A stretch of DNA of 64,000 nt. Origin: an uncultured archaeon (lineage in GTDB: Archaea > Thermoproteota > Nitrososphaeria_A > Caldarchaeales > Wolframiiraptoraceae). Under the pieces are notes generated by a model. That model ran no database searches and was not told where the DNA came from. It saw only the letters and a list, made by a program, of their open reading frames with translations. The stretch covers positions 44,539-108,538 of the forward strand of contig CALKCF010000001.1 of NCBI GenBank assembly GCA_938083505.1. The letters are read 5' to 3'. Positions 320 to 64,000 of the stretch are shown one piece after another. The position numbers and the translations under genes were made by a program. How positions within the stretch are numbered: position 1 is the first letter of the stretch; every line of letters begins with the position of its first letter.

Positions 320-1117
320 ATGGTTTTCGGAAAGCAGGTCAGGTTGAGTAGAATAACAGAAAAAGGAAAGATGCTTTGCATACCGATGGACCACGGTGTT
401 ACTATAGGGCCGGTCAAAGGCTTAGACAAGATATTTGATATAATAGAAAAGATTAGCTTTGGAGGAGCCACGGCCGTTTTGACACAAAAAGGTATACTGA
501 GGATGATGCCCAAGCCCTTGAACGTTGGCACTATAATGCATGTCTCTGCAAGTACGTCATTAGGACCATCACCTAACTTCAAAGTGAGAGTTTCGAGTGT
601 GGAAGAAGCCCTAAGGCTCGGAGCAGATGCTGTTTCCGTTCACGTTAATATAGGATGTAGTGATGAGCCGAAGATGCTGAGAAAGCTTGGAATGCTTGCT
701 GATGAGTGCGACGAATGGCAAGTACCGTTCATAGCGATGATGTATCCGAGGGGCGAGAACATAAAGAATCCAAACGACCCTGAGATCGTAGCACATGTTG
801 CAAGGATAGGTGCTGAGCTTGGAGCTGACATCGTAAAGACGCCCTACACAGGCACTCTGGAGACATTTAGGAAGGTTGTGGATGGTTGCCCAGTTCCCAT
901 AGTCATAGCCGGTGGACCGAAAGCAGAGAGCGACCTAGAAGTTTTGAAGATGGTAAGGGAAGCTATGGACGCCGGCGCTATCGGCGCAGCAATAGGCAGG
1001 AACGTTTTTCAACATGATAATCCGTTTGCGATAACCAAAGCGCTCAGGGCCATAATAATTGAGGATTACACACTCAATGAGGCGCTGGAGGTGCTTAAGG
1101 ACGCATCTACCAAGTAA
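320..1117 (+). CDS. aroA': 2-amino-3,7-dideoxy-D-threo-hept-6-ulosonate (ADH) synthase, class I aldolase
   Basis: PMDHG, MMYPRG, GADIVKT (Schiff-base Lys), AGGPK and GRNVFQ; adjacent to DHQ synthase II. Confidence 0.9.
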   Translation: MVFGKQVRLSRITEKGKMLCIPMDHGVTIGPVKGLDKIFDIIEKISFGGATAVLTQKGILRMMPKPLNVGTIMHVSASTSLGPSPNFKVRVSSVEEALRLGADAVSVHVNIGCSDEPKMLRKLGMLADECDEWQVPFIAMMYPRGENIKNPNDPEIVAHVARIGAELGADIVKTPYTGTLETFRKVVDGCPVPIVIAGGPKAESDLEVLKMVREAMDAGAIGAAIGRNVFQHDNPFAITKALRAIIIEDYTLNEALEVLKDASTK

Positions 1118-2159
1118 AAAGGAGTTTTGCATAGATTTAAGAGACTGGAACGACGAAATCTTTAGAGAAGCTTTCTCGAGAGGGATTACTACATATTATT
1201 GTGATCCTACCAACATTCCACAAGAGCTTAGACAAAAGCTGACGATATACTCGGATTTGTCGACCGGAGATGTCATTGTTATACCTCTCGGTAAAGAGGT
1301 ACCGCAGGTGAGAAGGTTTGCGGTGTATGCTGTCGTGCTAAATTATAGCGATGTAGAGAAGTTAATCTCCGCGGTAAAGCTTGGCGCCGAGGCTTTGATA
1401 GTTGATGCTAAAGATTGGAAGATAATACCGTTAGAAAACATAATCGCATACCTGCAAAAAACATCCACGAAGCTTATGGCGAAGGTCGATAGCTTAGAGG
1501 AGATCGAAACTATGTACGGCATCTTGGAGAGAGGGGTTGATGTTGTCTTGTTTAAACCAAAGAGCAAAGAGGATGTTAGCAGAATATTTGAGGCGATCAG
1601 CTACATCGTAAGTGTTCAGCTAACTTCGGTGGAAGTTACAGAAGTCAAGGATGTAGGGATGGGGGATAGGGCATGTATCGATACGATATCTATTTTATCG
1701 ATAGGGGAGGGCATGCTCGTTGGAAGTAAAGCAAGTTTTCTATTCCTCATTCACAGTGAATCGTTAGGTTCTTCGTTCACGGAACCAAGACCCTTCAGGG
1801 TAAATGCAGGTGCGATACATAGTTATGTTTTAACACCTACTGGTGGAACTAAGTACTTATCAGAGATAAAGGCAGGTGATAGAGTCCTGATAATTAACAT
1901 GCAAGGCTCGGCAAGACCCGCCACAGTCGGCAGGGTTAAGATAGAGAGGAGGCCGATGAGACTTATCAGGGCTGAGGCTAACGGTGAAGAGGGTACTGTT
2001 GTTTTGCAAAACGCTGAGACCATAAGGCTTATAGGACCAGACGGTAAGCCCGTCCCGGTAACTGAAGTTAAACCTGGTGATAAAGTGTTAGCGTACATAA
2101 GCAGAGAGAAGGCTAGGCATTTCGGAGTGGCGATTGACGAATTCATAGTGGAGAAATAA
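1059..2159 (+). CDS. aroB': 3-dehydroquinate synthase II (true start probably 1077-1101)
   Basis: WKIIPLENIIA, GDRACIDT, RPFRVNAGAIHSY, GRVKIERRP, LQNAETIRL and ARHFG..IDEFIVEK. Confidence 0.93.
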   Translation: MRITHSMRRWRCLRTHLPSKKEFCIDLRDWNDEIFREAFSRGITTYYCDPTNIPQELRQKLTIYSDLSTGDVIVIPLGKEVPQVRRFAVYAVVLNYSDVEKLISAVKLGAEALIVDAKDWKIIPLENIIAYLQKTSTKLMAKVDSLEEIETMYGILERGVDVVLFKPKSKEDVSRIFEAISYIVSVQLTSVEVTEVKDVGMGDRACIDTISILSIGEGMLVGSKASFLFLIHSESLGSSFTEPRPFRVNAGAIHSYVLTPTGGTKYLSEIKAGDRVLIINMQGSARPATVGRVKIERRPMRLIRAEANGEEGTVVLQNAETIRLIGPDGKPVPVTEVKPGDKVLAYISREKARHFGVAIDEFIVEK

Positions 2160-2190
2160 TTCTCGATTATTCATTGAAACTGGTGAAACG

Positions 2191-2898
2191 ATGTTTACGA
2201 GAGCAAAACTGTTCAAATTATGTGTATCGACATTTGGAAGAGACATACACTCTTTGAGAGATTCTGTAGTTAAGGCAATAAGCGTTGGCGCAGACCTCGT
2301 AGAGGTTAGGCTTGATTATTTAGATGAATTGAACGTTAATGTTGTAAGCTCAACGCTAAAGCCTTACATGAATAGACTCGTGTTAACGCTCAGAGCGCAT
2401 TATGAGAATGGACTATTTGAAGGTGATGAAAAGGAAAGAGCAGAAATCCTCAAACAATTGGGTCGGGAAGGTCCAGCGTATGTCGATATAGAGCTTCGTT
2501 CTCCTATGTTTCAGGACTTATCAAAAGAGTTGATGAAGGCAGGTACCGCTTTAATAGTTTCATGGCATGACTTTGAGAAGACACTAGATACCGACACACT
2601 CAGAAGAATAGCCAATATGGCCATGATTGGTGGAAGTATTGCGAAAGTTGTAACTATGGCGAGATCTTTCAGCGATAACCTTAAGGTCCTCTCGCTATAC
2701 CATACAGGCGATAAACACAGACTTGTAGCCTTCTGTATGGGAACAGAAGGTGTCTTATCTCGGTTTCTCTCGGTAATGTTGGGAGCACCCTTCATGTATG
2801 TCTCATTGCCTGGGGAGCCAACAGCACCCGGCCAACCCAGCATCACCGAAGCAAAGGAGATCTTCCGCATGCTTTCGTTAAGCTGTTGTGGAGAGTGA
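2191..2898 (+). CDS. aroD: 3-dehydroquinate dehydratase type I
   Basis: DLVEVRLD, VSWHDFEKT, AKVV, FCMG..G..SR and TAPGQ; operon context. Confidence 0.92.
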   Translation: MFTRAKLFKLCVSTFGRDIHSLRDSVVKAISVGADLVEVRLDYLDELNVNVVSSTLKPYMNRLVLTLRAHYENGLFEGDEKERAEILKQLGREGPAYVDIELRSPMFQDLSKELMKAGTALIVSWHDFEKTLDTDTLRRIANMAMIGGSIAKVVTMARSFSDNLKVLSLYHTGDKHRLVAFCMGTEGVLSRFLSVMLGAPFMYVSLPGEPTAPGQPSITEAKEIFRMLSLSCCGE

Positions 2899-3777
2899 TT
2901 GGGCATATCACCACAAACACGCTTCGGTAACAAAAGACTCATAGGCCTCATTGGACAACCGGTTAAGCATTCGATATCACCGGATATTCACAATGCTGCT
3001 TTTAACTATATGAACCTCGATTACTTTTACATCGCCTTTGATGTGAAGGAAAGGGCCTTAGGACTTGCTGTTAAGGGTCTTAAGGCCCTAGGAGCTTTAG
3101 GTTTTAATGTAACGATACCATATAAGCAGAAGGTCGTGAAGTTCCTGGATAAACTTGTAGACGATGCTAAAGTCCTAAAGACCGTAAATACTGTGGTGAT
3201 CGAAAAAGATAGAATGATTGGGTACAATACAGATGTTTTAGGTATAATGAATACCCTGGTGCCTTACAAAGACGTAATAAGTGGTTGTGAAGCATTGATT
3301 CTTGGTGCAGGTGGAGGCGCTTCTGCCGCCGCCTTAGCCTTGGCCAGATTTGGTTGTAATCACATAACGTTTGCTAACCGAACACTTTCAAGGGCCCGTA
3401 GGCTTGCGAACTTCCTACGTCAGAAGATTAAAATTTCTGCAGAGGGCATAGGTCTTTCGGCCAGCAACTTATCTGCAATTGCCAAAACTTGTGGTATTGT
3501 AATCAACGCGACACCCATCGGTATGTGGCCGAATAACAATAATTCATTGCTTAAAAAGGAACAGATACGAAGTGGCTCTATAATAATGGATATGGTATAC
3601 AATCCTTCTGAAACAGCACTCCTTAGAGAAGCAAAGCTTGCAGGTGCTATATGCGTCTCCGGACTTGACATGTTGGTATTTCAGGCTGCAGAGTCCTTTA
3701 AATTATGGACATCCTTAGAGCCGCCGATAGAGGTTATGAAGGAGGTTGCCTTAGAGGCAATAGGTCGTTTTGTATGA
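2899..3777 (+). CDS. aroE: Shikimate dehydrogenase
   Basis: HSISP, NVTIPYK, VNT, NTD, GAGG, NATPIGM, DMVYNP and GLDMLVFQA. Confidence 0.95.
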   Translation: MGISPQTRFGNKRLIGLIGQPVKHSISPDIHNAAFNYMNLDYFYIAFDVKERALGLAVKGLKALGALGFNVTIPYKQKVVKFLDKLVDDAKVLKTVNTVVIEKDRMIGYNTDVLGIMNTLVPYKDVISGCEALILGAGGGASAAALALARFGCNHITFANRTLSRARRLANFLRQKIKISAEGIGLSASNLSAIAKTCGIVINATPIGMWPNNNNSLLKKEQIRSGSIIMDMVYNPSETALLREAKLAGAICVSGLDMLVFQAAESFKLWTSLEPPIEVMKEVALEAIGRFV

Positions 3778-56268: not shown

Positions 56269-57088
56269 TCTATTATCGCCTTTTTTGATAAAGGCCTACA
56301 TCGCTATCCTACTCATGGCAGCCATATCCACGATTGGTTCTATCTCTGTATTAAGGGGTGTTGCTTATATGCCCGCCGAAGCAGCCCATGCGGCATTAGG
56401 TGGCGCAGCATTAGGAGTCTTGCTCGGACATGTAACCAACCTAGTGTTAGACCCATACATACTCGCAACGATCTTCGCTAGCGTCACGACACTTTTTGCG
56501 GGCTATGTAGGAAGGAAAGGTGGCCCGGAGGCAGTTGCGGCCGCACTCGCTGGCGCGTTAACTCTCGGTGTATCTGTTTATGCGTTTGTTAGATACGTTT
56601 TACCTGCAAACCTTAGAGTCGTTTTGGACGGCTATCTCGTAGGTGATATACTCCTTCTGGGAGATTTTGATATAGCCACATTGTCTATTCTAACTGTGAT
56701 ATGTATTATCATATTTGCGGTGTTTTACAATGAGATAGTTTATGTGTGCTTTGATCCAGAAAGTGCTGAGGCCATGGGTATGAACGTTTCATTCTATGAC
56801 TTCGTAATATTCTTCTTGATAGGTTTAGCTGGCAGCATAACCACGAAGGCTGTAGGCACACTTATCGTTTATGCTCTCGTGATAGCGCCGGCCATAACGG
56901 CAAAAGAGCTATCGAGAAGTGTCAATGGTATGTTGAGCCTTGCTACAGCCATAACTCTAGTAGCAGGTTATGGAGGTTTAATGTTCTCTATTGTATTTAA
57001 TATACCGAGTAGTGGATCCATAGCAATACTCGCAAGTGTTATATATGTCGGCACGATGCTATTCAAGAGGCTAGTTCAAAAACGATGA
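56261..57088 (+). CDS. Zn/Mn ABC permease
   Basis: AHAALGG, YLVGDIL, FDPESA and VG.LIV.AL..AP. Confidence 0.9.
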   Translation: MVDLLSPFLIKAYIAILLMAAISTIGSISVLRGVAYMPAEAAHAALGGAALGVLLGHVTNLVLDPYILATIFASVTTLFAGYVGRKGGPEAVAAALAGALTLGVSVYAFVRYVLPANLRVVLDGYLVGDILLLGDFDIATLSILTVICIIIFAVFYNEIVYVCFDPESAEAMGMNVSFYDFVIFFLIGLAGSITTKAVGTLIVYALVIAPAITAKELSRSVNGMLSLATAITLVAGYGGLMFSIVFNIPSSGSIAILASVIYVGTMLFKRLVQKR

Positions 57089-57133
57089 AACTATAATTAA
57101 GGCTTTGTGATATGAAAAAATATAAGGATAAAT

Positions 57134-57205
57134 GGGCCGGTAGCGTAGCGGAAGCGCGCCCGCCTCGCACGCGGGAGGTCGCGGGTTCGAGTCCCGCCCG
57201 GTCCA
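57134..57205 (+). tRNA. tRNA-Ala(CGC), intronless; probable island attachment site
   Basis: GGGCCGG/CCGGTCC-A; CCCGC-CT-CGC-AC-GCGGG; GGTTCGAGTCC. Confidence 0.95.
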
Positions 57206-57262
57206 CTCCTAATTGAGTGCGAATACTTTATGTAGGAGAGTAGTTTACTATTTTTGTGGGCG

Positions 57263-58585
57263 ATGCCAAAAAGAGGGAGTAAGTATAGCAAGCTTCTCAG
57301 CGATCCGCAGGTTAAGCGCTGGTTCATGAATGTTGCTAGAGGGAGCCCTATAACAGCCGAGGTCGCTTTGAGGAGGTTGAGCAAGCTTTGCGAGCTTTTG
57401 GATGCAACTCCTAAAGGAATGGTTGAAAGCGCCAGGAATGATCTGGCTGGCTTTCAAGACAAGCTTGAGGACATGGTTGCAGGACTTGAGGCTGATGGCA
57501 AGGCTCCAGGCTACATAGCTGATTTGATGAAGACCGTTAAGTCTTGGCTCAAGTACAACGACATAACTTTAACGAGAAGGATTAAGATAAAGAACTCAAC
57601 AGCTACGCCTACGATAGAGAATGAGCAAGTTCCTACGCAAGAAGAGCTTGCGAGAATATTGAGGGCCTCTCCACCAAGAGTTAGAGCAGCAATAGCTTTG
57701 ATAGCATTCGCTGATCTTAGGCCACAAAGTCTAGGAAACTATGATGGAAGCGATGGACTAATGATTAAAGATTTGCCAGAAATGAGGATAGAGGGCAATG
57801 AAGTTAAGTTTGAGAAGATACCAACAATGGTTATTGTTAGAGCAACGCTCAGCAAAGCTAGGCATAAGTACTTCACATTTCTTTCAAGCGAAGGATGCAC
57901 ATATTTGAAGGAATATCTTGAGGAAAGGATTAGAAATGGGGAGAAATTGACCCCTGAAAGCCCGTTAATAGCCCATGAAAGAAAAGAAGTTGCGGTTAAG
58001 AAGTTTGTTCAGACAAGGAAGATAACTCATTTTATAAGGCAGTGTATGCGTAAAGCTGGAGTATACAAGAGGCCTTATGTTCTAAGAGCTTATGCAGAAA
58101 CCCAATTGATAATTGCCGAATCTAAGGGAAAGATTTCCCATCCCTACCTTCAGTTCATAGCCGGTCATAAGGGAGATATAGAGGCAAGGTATTCAACAAA
58201 CAAAGGAGTTCTACCTCCAGATATGATCGAGGATATGAGGAAGTGCTACAAGGATTGCGAGCCCTTCCTAAGCACAATAGCTCAGCCATTAGAGCAATCG
58301 AGCATCATAAAGGAAGCCAAGATTGAGGCTTTAAAAAGTATAGCAAAGAGCTTGCTTGGAATAGATCTACTTGAAGTAAAAATTGCTAAAGAAAAAGAGA
58401 TTGGAAGAGAGTTAAGCAAAGATGAAGAAATGGAACTTTTTGAGAATGAACTTAAAAAATTAAGAGAAGGAAGGCATAATCCTCAGAGGATAGTGCATGA
58501 GAAGGAACTTGAGAAATATTTAGCTGGAGGTTGGCAGTTCGTTAGCGTGTTGCCTTCGCAGAGGATATTGATAAGGAAGGGTTAG
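57263..58585 (+). CDS. Tyrosine recombinase / integrase
   Basis: DLRP (R), SKARHK (K), RPYVLR (YxxR), AGH and RY (catalytic Tyr). Confidence 0.88.
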   Translation: MPKRGSKYSKLLSDPQVKRWFMNVARGSPITAEVALRRLSKLCELLDATPKGMVESARNDLAGFQDKLEDMVAGLEADGKAPGYIADLMKTVKSWLKYNDITLTRRIKIKNSTATPTIENEQVPTQEELARILRASPPRVRAAIALIAFADLRPQSLGNYDGSDGLMIKDLPEMRIEGNEVKFEKIPTMVIVRATLSKARHKYFTFLSSEGCTYLKEYLEERIRNGEKLTPESPLIAHERKEVAVKKFVQTRKITHFIRQCMRKAGVYKRPYVLRAYAETQLIIAESKGKISHPYLQFIAGHKGDIEARYSTNKGVLPPDMIEDMRKCYKDCEPFLSTIAQPLEQSSIIKEAKIEALKSIAKSLLGIDLLEVKIAKEKEIGRELSKDEEMELFENELKKLREGRHNPQRIVHEKELEKYLAGGWQFVSVLPSQRILIRKG

Positions 58586-58696
58586 CAAACGATATGGTTA
58601 AGCAAGGATTGTGGAGAAAAAGCTTTTATTTAAATTTTAAAAATATATCAGAGTTGTGAAGAAAGAAAACGCACTAAGTGTGGGATTTATTTTAAG

Positions 58697-59878
58697 ATGA
58701 AAAAATTGCATGTTCTCGATACCCTTGTTGGCGAGACAAATAAATCAATTTTTAATGGGTTAAAAATGTTGGTCGTTCAACATCTTTTTCCCGATACTCT
58801 GGAGCTTTTACTTCATTTAAAATCTCTTGGAATTTCACACATATGGGTAATCGGTAAACCGTACTCCAGTAGACAAGATGTGGTTTCAGAATTACGGAGA
58901 AATGGTATAAGTGTATTCCTTCCAACTTTTGATGAGCTGGAAGAAGGTTCAGCTCTAGAGCCTCTAATTAAAAATGTAATTGAAGAATGTAAAGATCGAA
59001 ATGAAAAATTCATAATCTTGGAGGATGGGGGATACATAGTACCATATCTTCATAAACATTTTGTGAATGAGTTAAGATATTGCGTAGGCGCAGTTGAACA
59101 AACCACGAGCGGAAAATGGGCAGATGAAGAAATAGAACGTGCAGGTTTGCTACGAATCCCCGTTGCTACAATCGCTTCTTCCTATCTAAAGACTGGGGTA
59201 GAGGCCACACATGTTGCTGACGCCGTACTCCGCTCAATTGAAAAAATCTGTTATAATTTAGGAAAAACGCTAACAGGCATGAGAGTTGGAGTAATTGGTT
59301 ATGGAACTATTGGAAGTAATATCGCCAAAAAACTACGTGATAGACATGCGATTGTTGCGGTAAATGATGAGGATCCCATACGGATGACAGTAGCGCGAAG
59401 TGGAGATGGGTTTGATACAGGAAATAAAAACAGTATAATAAATAGATCAGAATTAATTATAGGATGTACGGGTAGAAGATCTGTAATAGATGCAACCAAT
59501 ATTTTGCATGACCTACAAAATGACGCTATGATAGCTAACGCCAGTTCTAGGAGATTCGAGATAGATTTTGATTCCTTGAAAAGATTATCGGGGAGTATAA
59601 AGAAAATAGAAAGTGTGGGAACGGAATTTAAATTAATTGATGATAGACGCATATTTGTTCTTGCCCACGGATTTCCAGTCAATTTTTTCTTCGGTGAAAG
59701 TTTACCTGCAATGATAGCAGATCTGACACTATGCGAACTTTTCCTGTGTCTTCGACATATCGCTAAAGGTAATCTCAAGCCGAAAATATATTATATCGAA
59801 AAGGATTTTTATCAAGGTGAAAAAGACTTAGCACGTAGGTGGTATGACTATTGGTACAGAGAAAGGAAAAGAAACTGA
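58697..59878 (+). CDS. Divergent S-adenosylhomocysteine hydrolase-like NAD-binding protein
   Basis: QHL, EDGGY, EQTTSG, K...E, GYGTIG, GCTG, N....EID and LAHG.PVNF. Confidence 0.78.
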   Translation: MKKLHVLDTLVGETNKSIFNGLKMLVVQHLFPDTLELLLHLKSLGISHIWVIGKPYSSRQDVVSELRRNGISVFLPTFDELEEGSALEPLIKNVIEECKDRNEKFIILEDGGYIVPYLHKHFVNELRYCVGAVEQTTSGKWADEEIERAGLLRIPVATIASSYLKTGVEATHVADAVLRSIEKICYNLGKTLTGMRVGVIGYGTIGSNIAKKLRDRHAIVAVNDEDPIRMTVARSGDGFDTGNKNSIINRSELIIGCTGRRSVIDATNILHDLQNDAMIANASSRRFEIDFDSLKRLSGSIKKIESVGTEFKLIDDRRIFVLAHGFPVNFFFGESLPAMIADLTLCELFLCLRHIAKGNLKPKIYYIEKDFYQGEKDLARRWYDYWYRERKRN

Positions 59879-60237
59879 AGATTGTTTATGAAAAGGACAT
59901 CGAAGGTTTTAAAGGGATTTGTGGTTGGGTAAAGGAATTAATTGACCCTAACAATTCTGATGTAGAAAATCTTAATATGGCACTAATAACAGTTGAGCCA
60001 GGCAAAAGTTCTGAACCTCATTATCATGGTAAAACCGAGGAGATTTACTACATCTTGGAAGGAATAGGCGTTTTAACGTACGATGAGCAAAAACAAGAAA
60101 TTAGTGGAGGGTGCGCAATTTACATACCGCCCGGAAAGACGCATATGATAACCAATGTCGGAAGGCAAATTCTTAAGCTTTTATCGATTAATGCGCCTCC
60201 TTATGACCCAGATGATACACATATAGTAAAAACGTAA
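59851..60237 (+). CDS. Cupin domain protein
   Basis: PHYHGKTEEIYYILEG and IPPGKTHMI; ends with APPY.PDD. Confidence 0.88.
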   Translation: MVQRKEKKLKIVYEKDIEGFKGICGWVKELIDPNNSDVENLNMALITVEPGKSSEPHYHGKTEEIYYILEGIGVLTYDEQKQEISGGCAIYIPPGKTHMITNVGRQILKLLSINAPPYDPDDTHIVKT

Positions 60238-60328
60238 ACTGGAAGCCGTGTTTTAGTTCACTTGGCTCTGTATAAGGGCATAAAGGTTTATATAGTGGAG
60301 GGCTAATCAATAATCAGGTGGAATAATT

Positions 60329-60766
60329 ATGATTACCTACACCTCGATTGCAGAAGAAATTTTGAAAAGATTGTATAGTACAGGTGTAGTTCGTTCATCG
60401 GAACTTACAAAAGGATTAAAGTATTCAAAGTCACCTGTGTATCAAACTTTAAAGGAATTAGAAAAAGCAGGATTAATTCAAGTTGCTACCAATAGGCCTC
60501 GTTTCAAGGAGTATGTCATTACTCAAAAAGGAAAAGAATTGATCTCCGAGGAATTTCGAAAAAGTTATAGTGAAATATTCAAACTAGTGAGGGAATCTCC
60601 ATATTCATATGATTTAACACTTGAATTATTGAGCGAGCAAGTGCTTCAAAGTCTTCCAGAAAATTTAAGATCGTTTTCGATAATTCCCCTAATTAAAGAA
60701 AAAATTAGAAAAAATATTGAAAATATAAAGGAGGAGCTAAAAAAGGGGCTTCCTGCAATTCTTTAA
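60329..60766 (+). CDS. Winged-helix transcriptional regulator
   Basis: SELT...SKSPVYQTLKELEKAGLI...Y.ITQKG. Confidence 0.8.
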   Translation: MITYTSIAEEILKRLYSTGVVRSSELTKGLKYSKSPVYQTLKELEKAGLIQVATNRPRFKEYVITQKGKELISEEFRKSYSEIFKLVRESPYSYDLTLELLSEQVLQSLPENLRSFSIIPLIKEKIRKNIENIKEELKKGLPAIL

Positions 60767-60800
60767 CTTCTTGTAGACCTACCTAAAATTAAAATAAGCT

Positions 60801-61043
60801 GTGGAGCATAGTGGGAGTTACGTTCATGGCAAGGTGTACGAAATCGAAAATGTAGACGAGATTTTGCCGCTACTCGACGAGTATGAGGGATTCTATCCAG
60901 ACAAACCGGAAAGCAGTTTGTTTATTAGAAAAGTTATGAACGTGCTCATGGAAAATGGAGAAAATGTGAGGGCTTTCGTTTATCTCTACAACGGAAGCGT
61001 GAAGGGGAAAAAGGTACTCCCCACAGGTATTTGGGAGAAATGA
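60801..61043 (+). pseudogene. Gamma-glutamylcyclotransferase (AIG2-like) C-terminal fragment
   Basis: VHGKVYEI, LDEYEG, F.R and AFVYLY; N-terminal YGTL motif missing. Confidence 0.68.
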
Positions 61044-61068
61044 GATGGAAAATCAAACCATACGTAGA

Positions 61069-61280
61069 TCAAACCAGCTTAGTTAAAGCCTCTAAGAGTT
61101 TTTCCTTCCTTCTGTAAGCTTCTTCGTTTAAGAATGAAATAAGCTTGTTGGCAACTTGCCTATAAGGTTCAACAATCTGAGAGATAGCGTAATTCAAGAA
61201 CTTGTGCTTTAAGGTTTCTAAAGCTTTTTCAAAGTCTTCTTCATAGATATAGATGATTTCTCCCTTAACCTCTCCAGACA
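61069..61280 (-). pseudogene. 3' fragment of an unknown gene
   Basis: Protein-like C-terminus abutting the integrase remnant; no plausible start. Confidence 0.35.
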
Positions 61281-61285
61281 AGCTG

Positions 61286-61468
61286 GAGTTGGGTAGAGAA
61301 TTGAGCAAGGATGAGGAAATGGAGCTTTTTGAGAATGAATTGAAGAAACTGAGAGAAGGTAAACATAACCCTCAGAGGATAATACATGAAAGCGGGCTTG
61401 AAAGCTATTTAGCTAAAGGATGGCAGTTTGTTAGCGTGCTACCAGGCTAAAGGATATTGATAAAGAAA
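61286..61468 (+). pseudogene. 3' remnant of a second, related integrase (homologous to 58397-58585)
   Basis: ELGRELSKDEEMELFENELKKLREGKHNPQRII...GWQFVSVLP.*RILI; many third-position differences from the intact copy. Confidence 0.85.
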
Positions 61469-61622
61469 AAAATAAACACATTAGCAATAAGTGTGAGATT
61501 CCTTTACATTCACATTCATATGGTGATCTGATCTTTTAATGATAATAATTTAAACTTATACTTCAAATTTTAAAAGGTGCTTGCATTGAAGCATTTGGCT
61601 ATAAATTAATTAAAGGGTTTCC

Positions 61623-61997
61623 ATGCAAGATAAGAAGTTACAAAAAAGATTATTTGCTATATATTTTAAGAATAGGGAAGATGCGAGAAAGGCGCGGTGC
61701 ATTCTTTCAAATCAAATACCAAATATACAAATTCAACGTAGCTATATAGTTGTAGATGAAAGGCAACTTAAAGCGTTAAAAAAGCAAGGAATTAAATATA
61801 GATTTGGCATCAACCCAGATTATATCCCTCTCTATCCTGTATATATCGATCCTAAACTGCAGAGAAAAGTTGACGAAATTTTAGCAGAGTTTCCTCCTCT
61901 ACCGATTAAACATATGCTTTGCTTTTATTTGCTAAGTAAAATGCACCTAAAGGCATTAGACGTGTCTGGCATTAAGTACGAAATGTTGGAGTTATAA
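61623..61997 (+). CDS. Hypothetical protein with internal repeat
   Basis: LKALKKQGIKYRF and LKALDVSGIKYEM. Confidence 0.55.
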   Translation: MQDKKLQKRLFAIYFKNREDARKARCILSNQIPNIQIQRSYIVVDERQLKALKKQGIKYRFGINPDYIPLYPVYIDPKLQRKVDEILAEFPPLPIKHMLCFYLLSKMHLKALDVSGIKYEMLEL

Positions 61998-62270
61998 ATC
62001 AGATGTTTTATTTCACAGAGTGTGTTCCACAATTCATCCATACAACTATCTCACTACGATCTTTAAGCAGTAGACTGCGAGTCTTAGGAGAGTTCTCGTC
62101 TCGCCCGACTCCTTCCTCCTCGTCTTCATTCTATCTCCGAACCCTAGCCCATAGCCTCTAAGGCTTCTTTCCAAACTATGGGATTAGCCCTTGGAAACTA
62201 GAAAACGAGAAGCTCCTCATTTCATAGAAAAGCTTTATATAAATAGAGTGGACATTAAATTTTTTGATTT

Positions 62271-63166
62271 GTGTTGGAACAGCGAACCTTAAGAGAGCCG
62301 CTACAGGTATTCATGGAGAAATTACCGACTAAAATTCTTGTTAACTTTGCGAGAAAATATAAGGAGCGTTTCGGCCTTGGAACACATCTACCTCGAGAGG
62401 AAGTTGTATCGCAAATTTTAGAAAAACTGCCAAGAGATATAATTCTTCAAGAATTATACGCTCCATATGGGTGGGCGGTGATGTAACGATTCATTTATTC
62501 CGGATTTCTGAAAGCAAGCTTAACAATATTACTGGGGAAACTGAACTAGCAGAGATATCAAAGAGCATAGAGTTAAAGAAAGAATTGTCCGCGTTACCAG
62601 AACCTGTTGAAATAATTTTGTCAGAAGATAAGGTAGGAATTCGTTACGAATTCCTTGGTGAGCCTATTGTTTATCAAGATCCAGAGACACGTGAATTAAA
62701 AACCGTCAGACCCTTAAAAACGGCCTTTTCAATAGTACACTTCTCGACAGGCTTAACAGAAGTACGTATTTATGAAAGAATTCACGCTTTAAATGTTATC
62801 AAGGTGTTTAAGCAGTATTTTGGTGGAGAGTATGAAATATTAAAATTTACACGTGAACATCTAGGTCAATGGCTTGAGTGGGCAACACACTTAAGGAACG
62901 CTAGGTTTAAACCGAAAGGTCCCATCAGCACTCTATATATGGGTGCAAAAGGGTGGCGTGATTTACGGGATATAGATCTGTTTAGAGAATGGTGGAGAAA
63001 AGGTGAGCCGGTAGAAGGTATTTATATAAAATTCGAGTATGCCCCAAAAGAAGAAGTAGGCTTTGGTATAAATGCAAAGATGGGAAAGATTATGTTCAGA
63101 ACGTTTGCATCTGAAGAAGAAATAAAATTAATAATTGATCAGGCGGGACGGATACTTGAAATATGA
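62271..63166 (+). pseudogene. Single ~298-aa gene split by a 1-nt frameshift at ~62478 (or a sequencing error); unknown alpha/beta protein
   Basis: ORFs 62271-62486 and 62471-63166 join as ...PYGWA-GDVTIHLF if one G is restored in GCGGTGAT. Confidence 0.6.
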
Positions 63167-64000
63167 AATAGATAATACTCTCAAACGGATTATAGAGTAT
63201 ATAGGAAGCATTAGGGATCTTCCAGTTGAGGAGGATGAAATATTAGAAGATTTGATGATACCTGAAAAGGATGGCAAAAAAAGCTTACAGAATGGCGTTC
63301 ATCAAGGTCTCCTAGATGTTAAGATGGTAATCTCATGCGAAAGATGTGGTGAAGATATTCGAGAAATAAAAGATTATGAAGAAGTAGTTGGAAAGGAAGA
63401 AAAATGCGAATCCTGTGGCGAAGTATTCATTGTAACTGATGATTGTATCCGCTATTATTACTCACTCAGTTTCAAGGGAATGAATATCTATGCCACGTTT
63501 AAAAAACAATATTTCCTGATGCCTAAGTTTAATTTACTCCCATATTATATTGATAAAATGCATAAAAAGATACGAAGTAATATCCTTAAAGATTATTTCA
63601 TTCTTATATTGCTTCACTTCTTAAGAGATATAATCCCATTTGTTGAGGCGTTAAAAAGGTTTGGAGCAAAGCCAGACAAATGTTATCTTATCTGTAAACC
63701 ATATCCTTATGCTTATAAGGATCAGATAAGCTATTACTTAAGAAGAGAAGGATACCATATAAAAATTGCAGAATCATTTTACGAGATGCCTACTATAGTT
63801 TCTTCCATACTTCAGGAAGTCCAGCAAAGAATCAAGACTGAAGGTGGTTTTCTGATCGTTGTAGAAGATGGGGGTTACATTGCACCTATTCTTCACGAAA
63901 AATTCAGCAATCTAATTCCTGTTTGTAAAGGTATAATTGCCACCTGTGATGGCATTGATTGGTTTAATGTAAGTGTCGAATTCTTGATGTTGTTTTTGCA
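63156..64000 (+). CDS. wHTH/Zn-ribbon + SAH-hydrolase-like N-domain fusion, open to the window end (not in the ORF track)
   Basis: TTG start overlapping the upstream gene; CERC...CESC; then LLHFLRD, KPY and VEDGGYIAPILH matching 58697-59878. Confidence 0.75.
   Translation, partial: MKYEIDNTLKRIIEYIGSIRDLPVEEDEILEDLMIPEKDGKKSLQNGVHQGLLDVKMVISCERCGEDIREIKDYEEVVGKEEKCESCGEVFIVTDDCIRYYYSLSFKGMNIYATFKKQYFLMPKFNLLPYYIDKMHKKIRSNILKDYFILILLHFLRDIIPFVEALKRFGAKPDKCYLICKPYPYAYKDQISYYLRREGYHIKIAESFYEMPTIVSSILQEVQQRIKTEGGFLIVVEDGGYIAPILHEKFSNLIPVCKGIIATCDGIDWFNVSVEFLMLFL

Follow-up and report, generated by a model that had tools for sequence, protein, structure and literature searches.

The effector of the lambda RexAB exclusion system, RexB, is a membrane protein. 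The first component of that system is an RdgC-fold DNA-binding dimer (PMC11077077), and in this respect RexAB is like the locus described here, a pair of overlapping genes of which the first encodes a predicted RdgC-fold ring protein and the second a fusion of a wHTH/Zn-ribbon unit with a domain of the S-adenosylhomocysteine hydrolase (SAHH) fold. RexAB differs in that the module's ring protein is paired, judging from the model, with a soluble enzyme and carries an N-terminal SAP-like domain. GAPS4, which consists of the PD-(D/E)xK nuclease GAPS4a and of GAPS4b (PMC13748975), is likewise a two-gene system on mobile elements, in which a predicted ring that carries a docked effector is the proposed sensor of aberrant DNA. 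However, its effector is a PD-(D/E)xK nuclease (HGxD-SxK), whereas the second gene of the module encodes the wHTH-ribbon unit and the SAHH fold, and the GAPS4 paper makes no mention of RdgC, zinc, winged helix or SAP (PMC13748975). The closest published glimpse of the module's chassis is an RdgC-histone operon, in which an RdgC-like protein with extra small domains is followed by a winged-helix-containing gene (PMC11390915). There, a histone comes first and a transmembrane protein last, no function has been shown and no SAHH-like domain is mentioned; the two are likened by description, not by sequence, and are possibly the same chassis.

On the side of the enzyme, AhcY (EC 3.13.2.1; PDB 6gbn, 3x2f) shares with the clade of the fused domain the whole two-Rossmann-domain fold and the residues that contact ribose and NAD. 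The clade differs from it by its long branch, by D190E, by changes in the gate, signature and C-terminal arm, and by its many fusions to sensor domains. The immune ATP nucleosidases Cap17/DtcC are, like the clade, a housekeeping nucleoside-metabolism fold serving as a swappable immune effector, and they are used across CBASS, NLR-like and other systems (10.1101/2023.01.24.525353). Their fold is a different one, and they act by hydrolysis, in contrast to the NAD-dependent redox elimination proposed here. The module would work in the manner of GAPS4 and RexAB but belongs to neither, nor is it a housekeeping AhcY.

The window is the whole stretch of DNA analysed, 64,000 nucleotides of an uncultured archaeon, and its end (64000) is also the end of the contig (C1, 108538 nt). 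The source genome has 1.15 Mb and is 98.5% complete. The features of the window that matter here are as follows.

57134-58585, forward strand: tRNA-Ala(CGC), then a tyrosine-integrase-like gene, recognised by context and a weak match (Phage_integrase, E 0.045).
58697-59878, forward strand: stand-alone intact SAHH-like gene, from another subgroup of the clade, 27% identical to the fusion.
62233-62242, forward strand: TATA-like box some 30 nt upstream of the partner gene, seen in the sequence; candidate archaeal promoter.
62271-63166, forward strand: partner gene of about 298 codons, with a SAP-like helical N-domain and an RdgC-fold body (predicted DNA ring), from relatives and a structure model.
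63156-63500, forward strand: wHTH domain whose wing holds an inserted C4 Zn ribbon, the conserved adaptor of the module, from the P0005 model, the 3nrv alignment and invariant Cys.
63519-63932, forward strand: N-terminal part (substrate-binding domain) of the putative SAHH-fold effector, truncated, from homologue alignments and Foldseek.
63933-64000, no strand: junction to unrelated sequence at the contig end, with the break at about 63939.

The module copy sits in a low-G+C integrase island at tRNA-Ala. Over the 6.7 kb from the tRNA-Ala/integrase region to the contig end, G+C is 37.4%, compared with 41.9% before it. The 3' end of the integrase gene (58397-58578) recurs at 61286-61467 as a copy of 182 nt (78%), the remnant of a second, related element. 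A gamma-glutamyl cyclotransferase (AIG2-like) fragment at 60801-61043, 5'-truncated and matching model positions 50-119 of 120, is a further sign of island decay. The non-coding stretch at 62018-62141 is 79% identical to another, apparently also intergenic, at G000:C6:178419-178543; a regulatory element, a small RNA or an element end are possible identities for it. A canonical housekeeping ahcY of the short archaeal type is present in the source genome on C6. Each of 60 related genomes has at most one SAHH match, always of the housekeeping ahcY type, and the ring gene is present in 2 of 401 genomes of the phylum; the SAHH-like fusion module is therefore accessory.

The fusion gene starts with a TTG at 63156 that overlaps the stop of the partner gene by 11 nt, and the frame has no stop up to 64000, as reported in the initial annotation. 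It cannot be extended, because the contig ends there. The gene itself is shorter than the open frame that had been assigned to it: homology stops at about 63932-63939, directly before a conserved EQT motif, and the final ~61 nt are unrelated, with no match elsewhere in the genome, in 40 relatives or in viral contigs. The N-terminal unit proved to be the winged helix with a C4 Zn ribbon in its wing that had been read from the translation. The ribbon Cys are residues 61, 64, 84 and 87 (nt 63336-63416) and are invariant in 10 close homologues. In the model of an intact fusion homologue, P0005 (pLDDT 93.6), this domain comprises three helices, a beta-wing with the inserted four-Cys ribbon and a fourth helix, and residues 1-117 align with the MarR-type wHTH 3nrv (Z 13.0, rmsd 1.8, 72 aligned). 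The homology that had been claimed between the C-terminal part and the 58697 protein is also borne out, with 27% identity over 156 aa for residues 122-275 (E 2e-10). Within this part, H154 and D238 correspond to human H55 and D131.

About 270 residues, including the whole NAD-binding domain, are absent from the window copy, and the missing half of the gene is on no other contig of the genome. Because homology ends before the EQT motif, the equivalents of E156, K186 and D190 are lost together with the NAD-binding domain, and in this cut gene H55 and D131 are the only ribose/redox residues kept. To judge from what the sequence retains, the window copy is probably inactive and decayed. The break at about 63939 may mark the site of a deletion or insertion, or else come from misassembly of the contig tip.

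A gene at a contig end, with a foreign tail and a frameshifted partner, could also be read as a chance chimera or an assembly artefact, but for the fusion this explanation is hardly credible. There are eight full-length fusion homologues of 527-698 aa (51-61% identity over 98-100% of the query), and among the fusion homologues codon position 3 is the most diverged (identity 0.48-0.52 vs 0.80-0.82 at position 2). The same architecture in eight full-length homologues and the coding pattern of divergence imply that the fusion is real and not due to chance, and the same fusion with the same 11-nt overlap is found in many independent assemblies. The artefact explanation is thus refuted for the fusion, while the lesions alone could be artefacts.

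The 58697 gene belongs to the clade as a distant member and lies outside the ring-fusion module. A recent duplication as the origin of the 58697 and 63156 genes was rejected on account of their 27% identity and different subclades. The window region 58697-60766, with the SAHH-like gene, an overlapping cupin gene and a wHTH gene, is a separate cassette. P0158, the nearest relative of the 58697 protein, adjoins a homologous wHTH gene (39% identity, L103:4315-4785); the cupin gene was not seen beside P0158. As the wHTH gene adjoins both 58697 and P0158, enzyme and regulator form a conserved cassette.

In the window, the partner gene is split into ORFs 62271-62486 and 62471-63166 by one missing base at about 62477. 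It is 57-64% identical, across both frames, to intact 297/299-aa genes in L001 and L005; an interpretation of the two ORFs as separate genes was rejected, since the relatives have a single gene. The model of the partner (pLDDT 80) resembles RdgC 2owl (Z 9.8, rmsd 5.3, 210 aligned; Foldseek E 2.5e-7). Residues 67-297 match RdgC, and residues 2-68 match the SAP domains of FAN1 and PIAS. The next structural matches of the ring model after RdgC are the kinetochore proteins CENP-L/CENP-N/Iml3 (Z 7.6-8.2), and the CENP-N match also covers the N-terminal helical domain; scores of this height are close to what a common arrangement alone can give. By its features, the window ring protein scored 0.91 against a cluster in which 15% of the members have GAPS4b_N. 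GAPS4b_N had no Pfam match on the ring proteins, a result of little weight, as the Pfam copy searched was one without PF26110. The ring proteins and the fusion match no PADLOC model, and the ring and the adaptor have no NCBIfam name. Prediction of a 1:1 complex of ring and adaptor, made without controls, gave a score of 0.09 against a mark of 0.32, which speaks neither for nor against a contact of the two.

The initial annotation had proposed a search for intact two-gene homologues and for effector swaps, and both were found. Linked and overlapping, the ring gene and the fusion occur in L001, L005, L023-L030, L099, L101 and L102, and also in the distant L010-L012, L031 and L032. The pair of L001, at 864-3336, is intact, as are those of L031 and L032. 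Among the close relatives of archaeal type, every one whose downstream gene can be read has the SAHH-like version. It had been allowed for that no other genome would show the fusion or the linkage, or that homologues would lie in ordinary metabolic operons. Instead, both recur in many assemblies, and no examined locus resembled a methyl-cycle operon. The distant adaptor-SAHH fusions P0067, P0041 and P0028 follow an overlapping gene of about 330 aa, with a weak SAP match in two of the three cases. This second ring family is homologous at its N-terminus to the window ring family (HHalign probability 89%, E 2e-6).

Searching species genomes with the ~330-aa ring family led to 58 loci, distributed over Planctomycetota, Acidobacteriota, Proteobacteria, Chloroflexota, a Methanotrichaceae archaeon and other lineages. 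A downstream ORF is present at 53 of the 58, almost all of them bacterial, and in all but one of these 53 loci (52/53) it overlaps the ring gene or lies within 15 nt of it. The adaptor profile reaches at least 8 bits in 42 of the 53 downstream ORFs vs none of the 1179 other ORFs of the same loci. The best reading of the wHTH/ribbon unit is that of an adaptor accompanying the RdgC-like partner. The C-terminal domains behind the ring, tallied by reading the sequences, with Pfam support for examples, are alpha/beta-hydrolase (31 of 53), TIR (3, one with a weak EAD7 match), CHAT (2), PNP (2), SAHH-like (2), CN-hydrolase (nitrilase; 1) and TauD (1); 11 have none or an unknown one. At L039 and L057, the place of the SAHH-like domain behind the same ring is taken by PNP domains. 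Other loci adjoin Pepco/Trypco, trypsin, ParB or restriction-like genes.

Some single loci show further arrangements. An archaeal locus of the same phylum (L090:620-2421, G184) has a ring gene, a free wHTH/Zn-ribbon adaptor of 133 aa and an Mrr-type nuclease, and this module adjoins an integrase-like remnant. At L004:384-2480 (P0008), a nucleotide deaminase domain precedes the wHTH-ribbon-SAHH fusion, which is without the ring gene immediately upstream. In L043-L054 and L093-L098, ring and adaptor with short non-enzymatic C-termini lie in prophage-like regions, with LexA-like, recombinase and primase genes as neighbours; this group is possibly a regulatory branch of the chassis.

These observations bear on the possibility that the whole module is a regulatory switch of a mobile element. 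The ring would sense the state of DNA, the wHTH would bind an operator and the SAHH-like domain would be a non-catalytic sensor of nucleoside or NAD, so that the pair would control expression or excision and kill nothing. The N-domain does have a MarR-type wHTH fold, and the 11 of 53 partners without a recognisable enzyme, some of them in prophage-like regions by repressor and primase genes, fit a regulatory role, as do the versions on viral contigs beside LexA-like and primase genes. RexA, moreover, biases the lambda switch independently of RexB (PMC11077077). However, TIR, CHAT, PNP, nuclease or hydrolase domains, of kinds typical of cell-suicide effectors, are present in most partners, and a mere switch is considered unlikely.

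The fold of the fused enzyme is that of SAHH. P0005 aligns with 6gbn over 378 residues (Z 39.0, rmsd 2.7) and with 3x2f in Foldseek (E 1e-22), and its Z to other dehydrogenases, at most 18, is far below that to SAHH. The clade is nevertheless apart from housekeeping AhcY: the canonical rows form one side of a branch with support 100, and P0005 is below the AhcY equivalog cut-offs (86.7 vs 275 bits for NF004005; 82.4 vs 497.6 for TIGR00936). Residues were counted in 158 clade members and are numbered after human SAHH. Those by which SAHH binds and oxidises the ribose (PMC4647836) are kept, with H55 in 152 members, D131 in 157, E156 in 157, T157 in 156, K186 in 157 and N346 in 157. In P0005, the counterparts of D131, E156 and K186 are D238, E262 and K290. 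GxGxxG is kept in 155-157 of the 158, and D190 is replaced by E in 157/158. The near-invariance of H55, D131, E156, K186 and the acidic residue at 190 argues for chemistry, and it also speaks against the regulatory switch.

The rest of the active site has been rebuilt. The nucleobase signature of SAHH, HxTxE/Q or HxExK (PMC10978960), is absent from the clade, in which T57 is L in 145/158 and E59 is D in 147/158, so that HxTxE of AhcY becomes HxLxD. The GHF molecular gate, conserved in all SAHH (PMC13406329), is replaced by S-S-D/E, with H301 changed to S in 157/158. The GHP loop is replaced (H353 to V, M, I or L), L347 is changed to F, and M358, F362 and the C-terminal arm of AhcY are without conservation. 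The loss of H301, which also favours the regulatory switch, could mean a slow or a non-catalytic, ligand-sensing domain. With the redox core kept and the base pocket and homocysteine gate rebuilt, SAH itself is probably not the substrate; a nucleotide or another ribonucleoside of the SAM type is the probable one. An active NAD-dependent enzyme that cleaves nucleosides or nucleotides is rather likely. SAHH is known to release nucleobases as a side reaction (PMC10978960), which offers a plausible route to nucleotide destruction.

A function in SAH removal is decidedly unlikely. Such an accessory enzyme would spare co-travelling restriction or defence methyltransferases from product inhibition, with the adaptor bringing it to DNA. 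SAH does inhibit most methyltransferases (PMC10978960), a large restriction-modification-like gene lies near the L001 module (by reading of the sequence), and at L105:2127-7441 an ORC-CDC6-like ATPase fused to the SAHH-like domain is followed by a CARF-type gene and then, two genes from the fusion, by an N6/N4 DNA methyltransferase, which fits SAH removal. Nevertheless, none of the HxTxE/HxExK signature, the GHF gate and the GHP loop is retained, the host already has its canonical ahcY on C6, most examined ring loci are without a linked methyltransferase, and TIR and nucleases can take the place of the SAHH-like domain.

The clade was sampled by 182 representative proteins at E 1e-30 or better, and their N-termini are very varied. 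SAVED is fused to the SAHH-like domain in four proteins, above the Pfam cut-off (P0087, P0085, P0104 and P0045). Genomic context was examined for one of the four, P0087 (L107:169-3186), which lies directly behind a CBASS cyclase (SMODS E 6e-27, PADLOC cyclase E 1e-71). The same clade thus fills the effector slot of a CBASS operon, which agrees with the earlier proposal that the SAHH-like fold is used as an effector, and this output position is a further argument against the regulatory switch. A CD-NTase cyclase was seen neither in window 57000-64000 nor beside intact homologues, and is present for the SAVED-fused relative at L107 only. Further fusions of the SAHH-like domain involve CARF-like, PRTase-CE, ORC-CDC6-like, STAND, AlbA, CHAT, HD and deaminase domains; the deaminase fusions P0061 and P0113 are without adaptor. 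The adaptor-fused state of SAHH-like domains requires 17 changes on a FastTree tree vs a shuffled mean of 26, which suggests repeated recombination. This double interchangeability, in which the chassis swaps effectors and the effector swaps sensors, is the strongest evidence for an immune effector. As the SAHH-like enzyme occupies the place of the cell-killing enzyme in known antiviral systems, it is probably a new kind of immune effector.

That the locus is a conflict module is quite probable. It can be said with fair confidence that the copy in the window is the decayed form of a mobile sensor-effector conflict module of two genes, probably antiviral, whose effector would destroy a nucleoside-type metabolite. 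Starting from the folds, linkage, swaps and residues described above, its binding, trigger, substrate and outcome are proposed by analogy with GAPS4, RexA and Cap17. Two copies of the partner protein would close into a ring on DNA, which is what RdgC and RexA do and what has been modelled for GAPS4b, and the wHTH/ribbon would dock the fusion protein on this ring. Aberrant or foreign DNA, such as ends or viral replication intermediates, would then switch on or cluster the effector; DNA damage as the trigger is a tentative and somewhat doubtful suggestion. By means of its bound NAD+, the effector would oxidise a nucleoside or nucleotide at the ribose 3'-OH, after which the 5' group would be eliminated or the base released. 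An essential pool would be drained, and the infected cell would stall or die. The initial annotation's idea of an undescribed two-gene mobile defence module with an SAHH-like effector has gained the linkage, the swaps and the CBASS slot, while its defence role and chemistry we still infer. The idea needed refinement in that the wHTH/ribbon is an adaptor, the substrate is probably not SAH, the 58697 gene is not part of the module and the copy is probably non-functional.

Neither an SAHH-fold defence effector nor an RdgC-based module of this kind was found in the literature searched, to which the PRTase-CE and SAVED/SMODS surveys and supplements did not belong, and terms for an SAHH-like effector are absent from the defence and conflict survey papers covered. 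Within the same literature, the earlier statement that no AdoHcyase of such architecture has been described also stands. Viral contigs contained no SAHH-like match with the patterns used. The SAHH-like clade is possibly a new effector class. Its broadest interpretation is an evenly balanced one: an SAHH-derived clade would be an unrecognised, widely shared immune effector that degrades a nucleotide or SAM-type cofactor with the help of bound NAD+, in CBASS, CARF, PRTase-CE and STAND settings as well as on archaeal and bacterial RdgC rings with a universal wHTH/Zn-ribbon adaptor.

Proteins of this clade are at present annotated as ordinary S-adenosylhomocysteine hydrolase, which misleads metabolic reconstructions. 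The SAVED fusion behind the cyclase (L107) is probably the cleanest system for finding the substrate, because the ligand that activates it can be synthesised in vitro and metabolomics can then identify the substrate. Through the ring-plus-adaptor chassis, which occurs in both archaea and bacteria, the RexA/GAPS4 design gains at least seven interchangeable outputs. If the proposed function is true, it would mean a new chemistry in prokaryotic immunity, in which a methyl-cycle enzyme has been turned into a metabolite-destroying effector, comparable to PNP (Cap17) and TIR.
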